Of a DNA stretch of 64,000 nucleotides, positions 706 to 6,879 are shown piece after piece. This DNA comes from an uncultured delta proteobacterium. GTDB lineage: Bacteria > Myxococcota_A > UBA9160 > SZUA-336. Every line of letters begins with the position of its first letter. Position 1 is the first letter of the stretch. A program made the translations under genes and the position numbers. The DNA lies in contig CAVPHD010000003.1 of the NCBI GenBank assembly GCA_963704165.1, positions 192,001 through 256,000 of the forward strand, given 5' to 3'. A model generated the notes under the pieces. The model was not told where the DNA came from, did not search any database, and saw only the letters and a program-made list of their open reading frames with translations.

Positions 706-1869
706 GTGCGCGAAGTCTACATCATCGAGGCAGTGCGAAGTCCGATCGGCAAGCGCGGTGGAGGGCTTGCGGGCATGCACCCCGCCGACCTGCTCGGCAC
801 GGTGCAGAAGGCCGCGTTGGACCGCAGCGGAGTCGCCCCCGAGGCGATCGGCCAGGTGCTCGGCGGCTGCGTGTCGCAGGTCGGCGAGCAGACCTTCAAC
901 ATCGCCCGCCTCGCATGGCTCTCGAAGGGCCTGCCGATGGACGTCGCAGCGACCACGCTCGACGCGCAGTGCGGATCGAGCCAGCAGGCGACGACGCTCG
1001 CCACCGGCTTGGTCGGCTCCGGACTCGAAGACATCGTTCTCGCCTGCGGGCTCGAGATGATGAGCCGCGTGCCGCTCGGCGCGGCGATGAAGGGCGGCTC
1101 ACCGATCCCGAAGAGCTACCTCGAGCACTACCCGCTCTCCTCGCAGTTCGGCGGCGCGGAGATGATCGGCAACGAGTACGGCATCACGCGCGAGGACACC
1201 GATCGCTTCGGCCTGCGCAGCCAGGAGCTCGCGGCGCGCGCGTGGGAGGAGAAGCGCTTCGAACGCGAGGTGATTCCGATCGCAGCCCCCGGAATCGATC
1301 CGGAAGGCAAACCGACCGGCGACGTCGTGCGCGTGGTTCGCGACGAGGGTCTGCGCAAGACCTCGCTCGAGAAGCTCGCGTCGCTCGCGCCCGTGCCCGG
1401 ACAGAACCTGCACACCGCGGGAACGTCGTCGCAGGTCAGCGACGGTGCAGCCGCGCTGATCCTGGCGTCCGCGGACGGCGTGAAGCGTCTAGGGGTGAAG
1501 CCACGCGCGCGCATCGTCGACTCGGTGCTCGTCGGATGCGATCCCGTGACCATGCTGAAGGGACCGATCCCTGCGACGCAGAAGGTGCTCGGCCGCGCGG
1601 GACTGAAGATCGAGGAGATGTCGGTCTACGAGGTGAACGAGGCGTTCGCGTCGGTCGTGCTCGCGTGGATGAAGGCGTGCAAGCCGGTCGAGGAGCGCGT
1701 GAATCCGAACGGCGGCGCAATCGCGCTCGGTCATCCCACGGGCTGCACCGGCGCGAGGTTGATCACGTCGGCGCTCCACGAACTGGAGCGAACGGGCGGC
1801 CGCTATGGCCTGGTCAGCATGTGCTGCGGCGGGGGCCTCGGCACCGGCACGATCATCGAGCGCCTCTAG
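706..1869 (+). CDS. Acetyl-CoA C-acyltransferase (thiolase), FadA5/steroid 3-ketoacyl-CoA thiolase-like
   Basis: QCGSSQQA catalytic Cys, NEAF, GAIALGHP and CCGGGLG motifs; RBS-like AGAGGGG upstream. Confidence 0.93.
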   Translation: MREVYIIEAVRSPIGKRGGGLAGMHPADLLGTVQKAALDRSGVAPEAIGQVLGGCVSQVGEQTFNIARLAWLSKGLPMDVAATTLDAQCGSSQQATTLATGLVGSGLEDIVLACGLEMMSRVPLGAAMKGGSPIPKSYLEHYPLSSQFGGAEMIGNEYGITREDTDRFGLRSQELAARAWEEKRFEREVIPIAAPGIDPEGKPTGDVVRVVRDEGLRKTSLEKLASLAPVPGQNLHTAGTSSQVSDGAAALILASADGVKRLGVKPRARIVDSVLVGCDPVTMLKGPIPATQKVLGRAGLKIEEMSVYEVNEAFASVVLAWMKACKPVEERVNPNGGAIALGHPTGCTGARLITSALHELERTGGRYGLVSMCCGGGLGTGTIIERL

Positions 1870-1896
1870 CCCCTCCGAGCGCGGAGCCGGCGCGCG

Positions 1897-3516
1897 CTAC
1901 GCGTAGCGATTCGCCGCGAACTCCTGCGCGCTCTTGTAGTCCGCCTTTCCGTTGGGCGCGCGGAACATCGCGGGTACCGCGAAGACGCGCTTCGGAAGCT
2001 TGTACGCCGCGAGCCGCTCGCGCGTGTGGGCGCGAAGCTTCTCCTCGTCGAGGATCGCGCCGTTGCGGAGCTGCACGACCGCTGCGACGGCGTTGCCCCA
2101 GCGGTCGTCGGGAACGCCGACCACGAGCGCGTCCTCGACGTCGGGGTGGGTCTTCAGCGCCTCCTCGACCTCCTCGGGGTAGATCTTCTCGCCCGCGGAG
2201 TTGATGCACGCGCTTCCGCGTCCGAGCAGCGTCAGCGTGCCATCGGTCTCGACCGTGCACCAATCGCCGGGAATCGAGTAGCGAACGCCGCCGATCGTCG
2301 GGAACGTCTTCTCGCTCTTCTCCGGATCCTTCCAGTACCCGACGGGGATCGGTCCGCTTCGCGCGATGAAACCCTTCTCGCCGCTTCCCGGCGCGACTTC
2401 ACGGTGATCCTCGCTGAAGACCTTGCAGCGCTCGCCGATCGTGAACTTCGCGGTCTTCACCTCGCCCGCAGCGGTCATGATCGAGGAGCCGAAGCCGACC
2501 GCCTCCGACGAGCCGAACGAGTCCGTGAGGATCATGCCGGGGTTGTGGCGCAAGAGGCCCTTCTTCACCTCGGTGCTCCACATCACGCCGGAGGAGACGA
2601 TCACCTTCACCGACGAGATGTCCCAGCGCCCCGGGTCCTCGTCGAGCGCGTTCAGCATCGGCTTCGCGAACGCGTCGCCGACGATCACGAGCGAGTTCAC
2701 CTGATGACGCTGAACGGTGTCATAGAGCTCGGCGGGGTCGAACCTGTGCCCCGGGGTGGTGACGATGCAACCGCCGGCGGTGATCGTCCCGATCGCCGTG
2801 AAGAGTCCCGTTCCGTGCATCAGCGGGCAGCACGGGATCTGCTTCGAGAGCGGCCCCGCCTTCACCACGTTCGAGACGTGCTCTGCGAGCGTCTCGGGCG
2901 CGACGCCGCCGTTCGCCGGCGCGTTCGCACCCGCGGCGAGCGCGTGCCAGAGGTCGTTCGCGGCCCACATCACGCCCTTCGGCATGCCGGTCGTCCCGCC
3001 GGTGTACAGGAAGAGCAGATCCTTCCCGTCGCGCGGAATCCCGAGCGCGCGCCCGTTGCCGGAGGTCGCGAGGGATTCGTAGGGGATCGCGAAGTCCAGC
3101 AGCTCTCCGCCGACCTGCACCCAGGTGGTCACCTTCGGGAGGCGCGCGTGCAGCTTCGCGACCCGGTCCGCGAACTCACCGTCGAAGACGACCACCTTCG
3201 CGTCGGAGTTGTCGAAGATGTACCAGAGCTCCTCGTCGAGGTAGCGGTAGTTCACGTTCACGTGCACGAGCCGCGCCTTGAAGCACGCCGCCAGCGTCTC
3301 GACGTATTCGGGACGGTTGCGCAGGTAGAAGCCGACCTTGTCGTCGGCCGTCCCGCCGCGCGCGAGAAGCTGCGCGGCGAGGTTGTTCGAGCGGCGCGCG
3401 AATTCGCTCCACGTCGTGACGACGTCGCCGTGGATCAGCGCGGGCGCGTCCGAGGCGTAATCCGCGTCGAGCGCGTCGAGGATGTCGCCGAGGTTCCAGT
3501 TCGGGGCCGTGGGCAT
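1897..3516 (-). CDS. Acyl-CoA synthetase (AMP-binding), FadD19-like
   Basis: YTGGTTGMPKG, VNVNYRY, DSFGSSE, GRGSACINSAGEKIYPEEVE, NGKADY motifs; start set at MPTAPNWN after a GGAGG RBS. Confidence 0.92.
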   Translation of the reverse strand: MPTAPNWNLGDILDALDADYASDAPALIHGDVVTTWSEFARRSNNLAAQLLARGGTADDKVGFYLRNRPEYVETLAACFKARLVHVNVNYRYLDEELWYIFDNSDAKVVVFDGEFADRVAKLHARLPKVTTWVQVGGELLDFAIPYESLATSGNGRALGIPRDGKDLLFLYTGGTTGMPKGVMWAANDLWHALAAGANAPANGGVAPETLAEHVSNVVKAGPLSKQIPCCPLMHGTGLFTAIGTITAGGCIVTTPGHRFDPAELYDTVQRHQVNSLVIVGDAFAKPMLNALDEDPGRWDISSVKVIVSSGVMWSTEVKKGLLRHNPGMILTDSFGSSEAVGFGSSIMTAAGEVKTAKFTIGERCKVFSEDHREVAPGSGEKGFIARSGPIPVGYWKDPEKSEKTFPTIGGVRYSIPGDWCTVETDGTLTLLGRGSACINSAGEKIYPEEVEEALKTHPDVEDALVVGVPDDRWGNAVAAVVQLRNGAILDEEKLRAHTRERLAAYKLPKRVFAVPAMFRAPNGKADYKSAQEFAANRYA

Positions 3517-3605
3517 CTGAGATTCCTCCGAGGGAGCGCGGATGATACCCGAAACGCCCTGGGGCCCGATGACGGGATGGCTTCGATCCTCCCGCTGACG
3601 CGCGG

Positions 3606-4223
3606 TCAGCGGACCGGATCGGCGCCGAGCGGTCCGACGGTGGTCTCGACCACCGTGCGCAGGAAACGCGCGATCTGCTCGGGTGAGCGCCCCGCGAATT
3701 TCATCTGCGCGACGGCGGGCGCGATGGCGATGATCATGCGCGCGTCCTCCTCGGCATCGACGCTCGAGGGGACCGTGCCCTCCGCCTTGCCGCGCTCGAC
3801 GATGCGCGCGACTCGATCGGTCAGGCGATCCTGAAATGCGACGAAGCGAGGCCAGAGCTCGTCGCCGATCGCCGCGCTGCACTCGAGCCAGATTCGAGCG
3901 TACTCGGGGTGGGCGTCGATCGATTCCTCGAACGACGTCGCGAGTGCGAGCAATACACGCGGAGCCGGCCGATCGAGGGCGAGCGTCCGATCGACCATCG
4001 CGAGGAAGAACCGCTCGACCTCGTCGAGGACCGCCGTCACGAGCGCCGCCCGGGTCGGGAAGTAGACGAACACGGTGGAGACCGCGACGCCGCTCTGGCG
4101 GGCGATCTCCGCGTGCCGTCCCGCAGCGATCCCGCGTCGTCCGAAGACCTGGATCGCACAGGCGAGGAGCTGGGCTCGGCGGGCCTCAGGATCGAGACGG
4201 GATGCACGGGCTCGCTTCGCCAT
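3606..4223 (-). CDS. TetR-family regulator, HapR/SmcR/LuxR(Vibrio)-like
   Basis: HTH RLDPEARRAQLL..VFGRRGIAAGRHAEIA..VAVSTVFVYFPTR and C-terminal IWLECSAAIGDELWPRFV, which parallel HapR segments as recalled (GHADIA..VSVATVFNYFPTR; VWFEWSASTRDEVWPLFV). Alternative start 4238. Confidence 0.85.
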   Translation of the reverse strand: MAKRARASRLDPEARRAQLLACAIQVFGRRGIAAGRHAEIARQSGVAVSTVFVYFPTRAALVTAVLDEVERFFLAMVDRTLALDRPAPRVLLALATSFEESIDAHPEYARIWLECSAAIGDELWPRFVAFQDRLTDRVARIVERGKAEGTVPSSVDAEEDARMIIAIAPAVAQMKFAGRSPEQIARFLRTVVETTVGPLGADPVR

Positions 4224-4244
4224 CGGGATCCCGACCATAAAAAC

Positions 4245-4264
4245 TATTGACAGACTTCTCAATT
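4245..4264. promoter_or_regulatory. Putative TetR operator 1, overlapping a TTGACA -35 hexamer (4247-4252)
   Basis: TATTGACA-GACT-TCTCAATT, an imperfect 8-4-8 inverted repeat in an AT-rich divergent intergenic gap. Confidence 0.6.
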
Positions 4265-4278
4265 GAGCGGATAAGATT

Positions 4279-4298
4279 TATTGATAATGCTATCAGTA
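4279..4298. promoter_or_regulatory. Putative TetR operator 2 (LuxR/SmcR-box-like palindrome)
   Basis: TATTGATA-ATGC-TATCAGTA, an 8-4-8 inverted repeat with one mismatch. Confidence 0.7.
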
Positions 4299-4324
4299 GT
4301 GTTCGACCCAATATCGGAGGATCC

Positions 4325-5516: not shown

Positions 5517-5981
5517 ATGGCCGACACGATCCGATTCCCGTCGGTAGAGTGGTTTCAGCGCCTCGCGCTCCTGATGCACGAGAGCCGCACGCGCCAGATC
5601 CAGCTCGGCTACGTCGATTGCACGGTGCTCTTCACCGTGACCGACGGAGGCACGGGCGGTCGCCCTTGGTCCGCGCTCGTCACGTTCGAGGAGTTCGACG
5701 CGATCGATGTGCGCGAGGCCAGCGCGGCCGATGCCGCGCGCGCGGACTTCGCGCTCGAAGCGACGCTCGCGACCTGGCGCGAGATGATCGAGAGCATCGC
5801 CGCGGGCGGCGGGCGGCCCGACCTCGACCACACGCTGAACCGGCTGTCGCACCTCGGTTCACCGCTGCGGGTGAGCTCGGACGACGTGCTCAAGACGGAC
5901 CTCTACTTCCGCTTCAATCAGAGCCTGCAGGAGTTCGTCAACGCGTCGGCGGCGTTCCGCACCCAGATCGCGAGTCCGTAG
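5517..5981 (+). CDS. Hypothetical protein, SCP2 (sterol carrier)-like fold
   Basis: N-terminal FPSVEWF and ADFALEATLATWREMI are typical of bacterial SCP2-like proteins; starts 1 nt after the diiron gene stop, with a GGAGG RBS. Confidence 0.65.
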   Translation: MADTIRFPSVEWFQRLALLMHESRTRQIQLGYVDCTVLFTVTDGGTGGRPWSALVTFEEFDAIDVREASAADAARADFALEATLATWREMIESIAAGGGRPDLDHTLNRLSHLGSPLRVSSDDVLKTDLYFRFNQSLQEFVNASAAFRTQIASP

Positions 5982-5992
5982 GACCCACGGCG

Positions 5993-6274
5993 GTGGCGCG
6001 CAGCGGCCACTTCTACATCGACGAGACCTGCATCGGCTGCGGGGCGTGCGAGCACGCCTGTCCGGGAAAGGTCGACGCGATCTATCCGGTCGCGGACGAC
6101 TTCCTCGGCCGCTTCGCGATCGTGCTCGAGAGCTGCATCGACTGCGGCAAGTGCACTCCGCTTTGCCCGGTGGCCTGCATCCACGACGCGCGGAGCGAGG
6201 GGATCGTCGCGGGCGCCGGCGGTTACACGCGCATCCGGGAGCTCCAGGCCTGGGCCAAGGAGCGGATCGGTTAG
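5993..6274 (+). CDS. 2x[4Fe-4S] dicluster ferredoxin
   Basis: CIGCGACEHACP and CIDCGKCTPLCP; GTG start at 5993 inside track ORF 5549..6274. Confidence 0.88.
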   Translation: MARSGHFYIDETCIGCGACEHACPGKVDAIYPVADDFLGRFAIVLESCIDCGKCTPLCPVACIHDARSEGIVAGAGGYTRIRELQAWAKERIG

Positions 6275-6879
6275 CCGCGCCCGGCTCGGCGGGGCGCCTC
6301 GAGATGCGCGACCTCGTTCAGCGCGACGATGCTTCGCTCACCCGACGAGGCCGCGGCGAAACGGTTGATGCTCGTGTAGTCGGGCTGGAAGAAGAGCTGC
6401 CGGGCCGCGCCAAGGACATGGGCCGCAAAGACGTTGATGACGCCGCCGTGGCAGAAGACCGCGACCCGGCGTCCGCGATGCCGCGCGATGCACGCGTCGA
6501 GCGCCGAGCGCACCTCGGCGACGAAGACCTCGATCGGCACGCCTTCGCCGTAGCCGTTCTCCATGAATGCCCTCCAGGCCGGGTAGTCGGTCCGCTTCAG
6601 CTCTTCGAGCGGGACGTAGAGGGCGCTGTCGCGGTCGAACTCCGCCACGCGAGGCTCGATCTCGACCTCGAGGCCCAAGGCCTCGGCCAGCGGCGCGGCG
6701 GTCTCGCGCGCCCGAAGCAAAGGGCTGGCGACGATGTGGTCGATGGACTCGTGCGCGAGCCAGTGCGCGACGGCCTCGGCCTGGGCCCGCCCCTGCGGCG
6801 CGAGCGGCGGGTCGGCCGGCCGGCCATCGTCGCGTTCGACGCGCAGGGGCAATCCGTGACGAATGAGCAGCAAGTCCAC
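6271..6879 (-). CDS. Histidine phosphatase (phosphoglycerate mutase) family protein
   Basis: LIRHG, SPLLRARETA and CHGGVI motifs. Confidence 0.9.
   Translation of the reverse strand: MDLLLIRHGLPLRVERDDGRPADPPLAPQGRAQAEAVAHWLAHESIDHIVASPLLRARETAAPLAEALGLEVEIEPRVAEFDRDSALYVPLEELKRTDYPAWRAFMENGYGEGVPIEVFVAEVRSALDACIARHRGRRVAVFCHGGVINVFAAHVLGAARQLFFQPDYTSINRFAAASSGERSIVALNEVAHLEAPRRAGRG

Follow-up and report, generated by a model that had tools for sequence, protein, structure and literature searches.

The locus described here lies in a 64,000-nucleotide stretch of DNA, and by "the window" we mean that whole stretch. It consists of a gene for a TetR-family regulator, P0001, and, transcribed away from it, a cassette of three genes for a ferritin-like dimetal-carboxylate protein (P0002), an SCP2-fold protein and a ferredoxin (Table 1). 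The gap between the regulator gene and the diiron gene is 101 bp long and carries two boxes of LuxR type. Genes for a thiolase, an acyl-CoA ligase and a histidine phosphatase flank the cassette in the window (706-3519 and 6271-6879); they were considered as parts of the system and set aside, since they are not conserved in homologous loci.

Table 1. Features of the regulator-oxygenase locus (window coordinates).
Feature	Position	Strand	Details
TetR-family regulator P0001, HapR/LuxR/SmcR relative, 205 aa	3606..4223	-	ATG 4223, stop 3606
Predicted sigma-70 promoter of tetR, TTGAGA-17-TATGGT	4234..4262	-	Consensus match only; 1 found vs 0.2 expected from shuffles
Box 1, TATTGACA-GACT-TCTCAATT	4245..4264		6/8 arm pairs complementary; 3 mismatches to LuxR box
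Box 2, TATTGATA-ATGC-TATCAGTA	4279..4298		7/8 arm pairs complementary; 1 mismatch to LuxR box
Ferritin-like dimetal-carboxylate (diiron-type) protein P0002, 396 aa	4325..5515	+	Invariant E176/E178, E210xxH213, E259, E289xxH292
SCP2-fold protein, 154 aa; predicted partner subunit of the diiron protein	5517..5981	+
2x[4Fe-4S] ferredoxin, 93 aa; likely electron donor	5993..6274	+

No other 70-mer of the window is as AT-rich as the one starting at position 4237, which has 31% GC compared to 46% for the next. Box 1 contains a TTGACA (4247-4252) oriented toward the oxygenase operon, and the -35 element of the predicted tetR promoter falls inside the same box; box 2 ends 26 bases ahead of the diiron start codon. 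Downstream of TTGACA the -10 element is poor in the window (GATAAG), and the pattern TAnnnT is found at 16 to 18 bases from TTGACA in only 10 of 45 homologous loci. The consensus TATTGATA-N4-TATCAATA is given for LuxR and OpaR in the available parts of PMC3323551 and PMC8034623. An earlier reading made from the letters alone, referred to here as the sequence-only reading, had pointed to the AT-rich gap of about 100 bp, the two 8-4-8 palindromes, the TTGACA under the first of them and the LuxR/SmcR consensus, and each of these is borne out. Apart from these two boxes, the genome (3.87 Mb, 68% GC) has no site that differs from the LuxR box at four or fewer positions. Matrix scoring, which the same reading had proposed, gives them 32.8 and 28.4 bits, with the next best site of the genome at 13.7; the matrix was built from 75 homologue sites picked by their likeness to the consensus, and the window sites were left out of it. 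Across the homologue sites, the outer TA and the inner A of the box are 84 to 92% conserved.

The 18 best of 86 PDB matches to P0001 are chains of OpaR, HapR, SmcR, and LuxR (E values of 1e-27 to 7e-21), and the best match outside that group is MbdR, at 1.8e-10. When the C-terminal residues 66-205 were searched alone, HapR-family chains took the first 18 of 23 PDB rows, with a best E value of 1.9e-6, and other rows had values of 0.002 to 0.12. The ligand domain on its own therefore still places HapR-family chains first, although just one row has an E value below 1e-3. Compared with four Vibrionaceae proteins, P0001 is 51 to 56% identical in the DNA-binding part and 19 to 21% in the ligand domain, of which the IWLECS segment is the conserved part (33 to 48%). 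The likeness to the Vibrio regulators that had been read from the sequence does extend to both the HTH and the C-terminal domain by PDB ranking, but the ligand domain as a whole is far less similar than the segment quoted for it would suggest. Among NCBIfam models the HapR model NF040929 is the best for P0001, with 93.9 bits compared to 38.9 for the next model; its equivalog cut-off is 350 bits, and a Vibrio protein scores 419. In trees, the P0001 family and the Vibrionaceae proteins form one supported group against other TetR proteins of the same genome. Judged by its sequence, P0001 shares descent with HapR, SmcR, and LuxR in both domains and is a relative that stands outside the HapR equivalog. 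Many of its homologues carry the automatic JGI name "hemagglutinin/protease transcriptional regulator." The locus does lie far outside the Vibrionaceae, as the sequence-only reading had it, although a HapR homologue from outside that group, Aeromonas LitR, is already in print (PMC5247445, in the part available).

The regulator family is patchy among relatives, being found in 13 of 61 related genomes, and it is present in records named as Myxococcota, Binatia, and Gammaproteobacteria, one of the searches covering the best 80 of 172 matches. A sample of 400 gammaproteobacterial genomes gave two matches, with few candidates scored per genome. We scanned the 250 bases upstream of homologous genes from several phyla for the box, and a site with at most three mismatches was found at 69 of 95 loci and at none of 92 downstream controls. 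After removal of the window locus and four duplicates, the count was 65 of 90, compared to 5 in 9,000 shuffles; because the loci are related, these counts should not be read as independent. At 49 of the 90 loci, the divergent gene encodes a homologue (>60% identity) of the window diiron protein, and in all 38 diiron loci with enough flank the diiron, SCP2-like, and ferredoxin genes follow in that order. A box with at most three mismatches accompanies 43 of the 49 cassette loci, and at three of the 49 the scanned 250 bases hold no site within five mismatches. Conservation is higher for the diiron gene than for the regulator, with median identities of 75% and 54%, respectively, over 45 loci. One relative (G008) has a cassette with no TetR gene, behind unrelated genes (L199:1900-4400), and its surrounding 6 kb hold no site within six mismatches; we take this cassette without regulator or box as a sign that the cassette moves. 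The proposal that protein and operator are conserved together is supported by these counts, and many homologous loci do keep the divergent diiron operon with palindromes upstream of it.

Near-consensus sites number one or two per genome in five of five relatives, with a control count of zero, and this agrees with the local action that had been proposed for the window genome. In five genomes of other groups there are 4, 9, 4, 4, and 2 sites, compared to 2, 1, 6, 1, and 1 in the controls, so local action is less clean there. In each genome scanned the best or tied-best site adjoins the regulator. The genome with nine sites and one control site, that of locus L043, also has a second paralogue.

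P0002 has the metal-ligand pattern E...ExxH...E...ExxH, invariant in 45 sequences, and a four-helix bundle by fold match. No Pfam family covers it, its structural model is of middling quality (pLDDT 67.9), and a Foldseek search with that model gave no match at an E value of 0.001. A wide structural search returned ADO-like proteins with Z = 16.1 (rmsd of 3.4 over 208 residues and 4.1 over 243), the methane monooxygenase (MMO) hydroxylase with 14.7, and R2lox with 13.1, so that no class is a clear winner. None of the R2lox, ADO, AurF, and BMM profiles scored above its cut-off (R2lox, 30.8 bits, cut-off 194), and AurF came up only as 50% of one atlas cluster. There were no plasmid-borne diiron homologues, and no cultured host is named among the listed members of 10 diiron clusters. 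Among papers outside subscription we found none on oxygenase-linked HapR relatives or on this cassette.

The 154-aa protein has a confident model (pLDDT 91), whose top Foldseek rows are SCP2 proteins (E value of 5e-5, TM score of 0.59); the Pfam SCP2 match is weak and occurs in 8 of 40 family members. The predicted complex of the diiron and SCP2-fold proteins scores 0.81, and the best of three controls scores 0.00. Of 157 solved pairs, 116 reach the mark used for this score, as do 2 of 215 mismatched pairs; with our own alignments these counts are only a rough guide. At least 94% of contacts are shared between the runs, and partner pLDDT is at least 90. These predictions support binding between the two proteins. 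The predicted SCP2 interface is formed by the helices around the second ExxH motif of the diiron protein, roughly the region at which the coupling proteins of multicomponent monooxygenases dock. Since an SCP2-fold partner is predicted at the metal-site helices, the substrate of the cassette is likely to be hydrophobic. The sequence-only reading had gone further and spoken of a lipid-oxidising operon, for which the SCP2 fold gives weak support, while the acyl-CoA ligase and thiolase genes are not kept beside the cassette elsewhere.

The genome from which the window comes also holds two paralogous cassettes, on contigs C6 (L196:4299-6971) and C2 (L197:5654-8400). Both combine one SCP2-like gene with a pair of diiron genes that match the family profile with E values of 1e-48 to 6e-85; this arrangement suggests alpha and beta versions. 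The neighbors include genes that we take to be wax-ester-synthase-like and enoyl-CoA-hydratase-like, and an FkbM methyltransferase gene also adjoins these cassettes. No LuxR box was found at either, and the same genome has about nine other, distant ferritin-like genes.

Beyond the cassette, 42 of 80 candidate neighboring ORFs were scanned at loci that lack it, after apparent shadow frames and near-duplicate loci had been removed by eye. Eighteen belong to oxygenase families, 13 to other families, and 11 to none. The oxygenases are seven luciferase-like proteins, three P450s, two AurF-like and two FMO-like proteins, three soluble di-iron subunits (from two loci), and one FAD hydroxylase, which adjoins a different regulator. 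The others are two acyl-CoA dehydrogenases, three wax ester synthases, two glutathione S-transferases (GSTs), two hydrolases, and four further proteins. Of two additional members of the regulator family, one faces subunit C of a copper monooxygenase and the other a P450. The former type is seen at L170:3816-4607 and L167, where regulator genes with a LuxR-type box are divergent from an amoC/pmoC-like gene for subunit C of a copper membrane monooxygenase. At L094:1880-5781 and at L114 the regulator gene diverges from the four genes of a soluble di-iron monooxygenase, arranged in the order beta, coupling, alpha, reductase, and the L114 gap holds three boxes. In another genome (G011), a near-copy of box 1 lies between an FAD-dependent hydroxylase gene and what is likely another regulator gene (L111:1500-1520). 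Many loci of the family have two or three boxes, and FMO-linked members have one, which covers the start codon. Gene neighborhoods and sites suggest that the family at large is a portable module of repressor plus box, recruited mostly to oxygenases.

Seventeen DNA-contacting or interface residues of LuxR are named in the available part of PMC8034623, and 11 of them are identical in P0001 (R11, R17, R32, T52, F54, Y56, P58, T59, R60, E116, and E124). The six that differ are R9, R36, S49, A51, N55, and R122; P0001 has A7 at R9, A34 at R36, S49 at A51, V53 at N55, and G120 at R122, with an arginine one residue before A7. Because four base- or backbone-contacting LuxR residues differ, the affinity of P0001 for the box is not guaranteed. 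P0001 is also unusual in having Cys115, a position that is Trp in all 146 other aligned members. R9, R36, A51, and N55 are 100% conserved in 51 sequences, namely, 24 from Vibrionaceae, 11 linked to hpt, and 16 from between carA and dapB. At position 55, 48 cassette-linked sequences have Val or Phe in 88% and Asn in 10%; cassette-linked gammaproteobacterial members with Asn there are L043, L057, L060, L075, and L076. According to the available parts of PMC8191795 and PMC3705450, the N55I forms of SmcR and LuxR no longer read degenerate sites or activate, and they keep repression. Val or Phe at this position fits a narrow repressor, by analogy with those variants and as a correlation along one lineage.

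Ten pocket residues of SmcR can be taken from PMC12977469 (2026), as far as that text is available; F75, W114, and V140 are identical in P0001, and the others are replaced by hydrophobic or small residues. The same source states that SmcR-type proteins have no known native ligand, yet the pocket controls turnover. Either F75Y or C170F alone abolishes the sensitivity of SmcR to PTSP, as given in the accessible part of bioRxiv 10.1101/2021.04.14.439868, and for this reason the identity of a ligand cannot be transferred from P0001 to Vibrio. With a pocket about 20% identical, the suggestion that this locus could reveal the natural ligand class of HapR stays a tentative one.

In metagenome loci of the lineages nearest Vibrio (the best 80 of 121), the regulator gene is FMO-linked, lies between carA and dapB, or is divergent from hpt, as is also the case in the Vibrionaceae; the hpt-divergent members include Agarivorans- and Aeromonas-type proteins. 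Trees recover the context order FMO, carA-dapB, hpt, and Vibrionaceae, with the Vibrionaceae as one long-branched clade, and outgroup trees place that clade deep inside the family. The Vibrio master regulators appear, as far as sequence trees go, to be one long-branched, hpt-linked lineage of a wider family. A root on the Vibrionaceae branch was compatible with the AU tests (p = 0.43 and 0.53), as was one that separates the N55 group from all other members (p = 0.67, the constrained tree being 3.7 log units better). The ancestor-deviation root falls on the hpt-linked branch, a non-reversible model was uninformative on the root, and the two outgroup-free rootings did not favor a root among the local members. 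Because the tests leave alternative roots standing, we make no claim on the ancestry of HapR, and the ancestral function that the sequence-only reading hoped to find here is not established. Most TetR proteins are local repressors, which makes a local repressor plausible as the common ancestor of the family.

Two observations touch these lineages. Locus L122 and 15 similar metagenome loci encode homologues of Thalassolituus type whose recognition helix is the complete Vibrio one, between carA and dapB and with long AT-rich upstream regions; they are possible global regulators. The 4.94-Mb Aeromonas caviae record NZ_AP026896.1 (L198) is filed as a plasmid and has hpt-litR, so it is probably a chromosome.

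The reading that we prefer, with a probability of about 0.7, is that P0001 is a local repressor, likely ligand-released, of its own gene and of the divergent three-gene oxygenase cassette, which would act on a hydrophobic substrate. It starts from kinship, boxes, promoter overlap, rarity of the sites in the genome, and joint conservation, all of which are read directly from sequence. P0001 would likely bind the two boxes in the gap, where, as a dimer, it could block access to the start region at box 2 and to the -35 elements that lie in box 1. With the SCP2-fold protein bound to it and the ferredoxin supplying electrons, the diiron protein would oxidise a greasy small molecule, and that molecule or its product may be the inducer that releases the repressor.

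A local regulator on these boxes might instead sense a general signal, such as oxygen, redox state, a metal, or a common metabolite, or might be controlled by proteolysis. We regard this as improbable, even though one specific substrate would be a poor explanation for a family that faces at least six unrelated oxygenase types as well as hydrolases, GSTs, and acyl-CoA dehydrogenases. The pocket is also fairly constant across contexts at the positions of F100, W114, Y/F129, and Q133, and SmcR is turned over by ClpAP upon ligand binding (PMC12977469, in the part available). Against a general signal, the family alignment shows no conserved cysteine or metal motif. Pocket positions 75, 79, 167, 170, and 171 differ among the family groups. 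Divergently encoded TetR repressors are usually released by a molecule of the pathway, which again favors the ligand-released local repressor.

It seems very improbable that P0001 instead acts as HapR does, as a master regulator of quorum sensing whose large regulon is built on degenerate sites. NF040929 as best model and the JGI names point that way, and Vibrio sites are degenerate enough that a mismatch scan could miss them (PMC8191795, available part). The score nevertheless falls far short of the equivalog cut-off, there is no linkage to hpt, and the matrix scan drops from 28.4 bits straight to 13.7, although degenerate sites may escape scanning of any kind. Position 55 is Val in P0001, and Ile at this position confines SmcR to near-consensus sites (PMC8191795 and PMC3705450, available parts). 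The patchy presence in 13 of 61 genomes also speaks against a master regulator, as does LuxS, not found in this genome, which is 84% complete. A Qrr search gave no match, and its control likewise matched nowhere. Box enrichment in Aeromonas caviae was tried as a sign of a global regulon and gave no signal (eight sites, compared to nine in the control).

The slimmest chance of all is that the palindromes are just back-to-back -35 hexamers of divergent promoters in an AT-rich gap and resemble LuxR boxes incidentally: TTGACA and TTGAGA do lie inside box 1, and the operon-facing half-site is TTGACA in 28 of 45 loci (the tetR-facing half in 2 of 45), but no other divergent promoter of the genome gives such a site, the outer TA and inner A are conserved, many loci have two or three boxes, the FMO-linked box covers a start codon, and the cassette without a TetR gene has no box.

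A HapR homologue in Aeromonas and HapR-type JGI names were known before. A broader and distinctly tentative proposal can also be made: the Vibrio masters arose from a widespread family whose members repressed oxygenase genes locally and were by then able to recognize the LuxR box, the step to a global activator-repressor came with R9, R36, A51, and above all N55, and the pocket kept a capacity for small hydrophobic substrates or products of oxygenases. On this view the cassette would represent a novel diiron oxygenase of three components, in which the SCP2-fold protein serves as coupling subunit, and knowing what it acts on would indicate the missing ligand class of SmcR and HapR. Relatives that keep the same box, each facing one defined enzyme, offer a practical ligand screen for SmcR. 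The natural Val or Phe at position 55 mirrors the repress-only N55I variant, so the step from local to global can be tested by single substitutions. The predicted oxygenase cassette is itself of interest for its conservation across phyla, at the median diiron identity given above.

The nearest known systems are of four kinds. MbdR is a local repressor of aromatic catabolism that is released by an aryl-CoA. It is likewise a TetR regulator and the nearest non-HapR solved structure to P0001 (PDB 4uds), but its match is far weaker than those of the HapR-family chains, and it is missing from the C-terminal-only search.

P0002 shares with ADO, VlmB/AurF-like proteins, R2lox, and BMM alpha subunits a four-helix metal site with two ExxH motifs, and the cassette resembles the ferritin-like dimetal oxygenases in having a small predicted partner and a ferredoxin as likely donor. 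P0002 is only 10 to 20% identical to those proteins, however, and the cassette differs from the known dimetal oxygenases in the SCP2 fold of its partner, its 2x[4Fe-4S] ferredoxin, and its lack of a reductase gene.

Aeromonas LitR and the hpt-linked homologues of Agarivorans and relatives belong to the same family and are 37% identical to P0001; no oxygenase neighbor was seen for them, they sit beside hpt like hapR, and they keep R9, R36, A51, and N55. With LuxR, HapR, SmcR, OpaR, and LitR of the Vibrionaceae (NF040929), P0001 has in common the TetR fold, the 8-4-8 box, and, likely, autorepression. The Vibrionaceae regulators command a large regulon and adjoin hpt, whereas the P0001 genome has two strong sites and the P0001 gene is divergent from the diiron gene of an oxygenase cassette.
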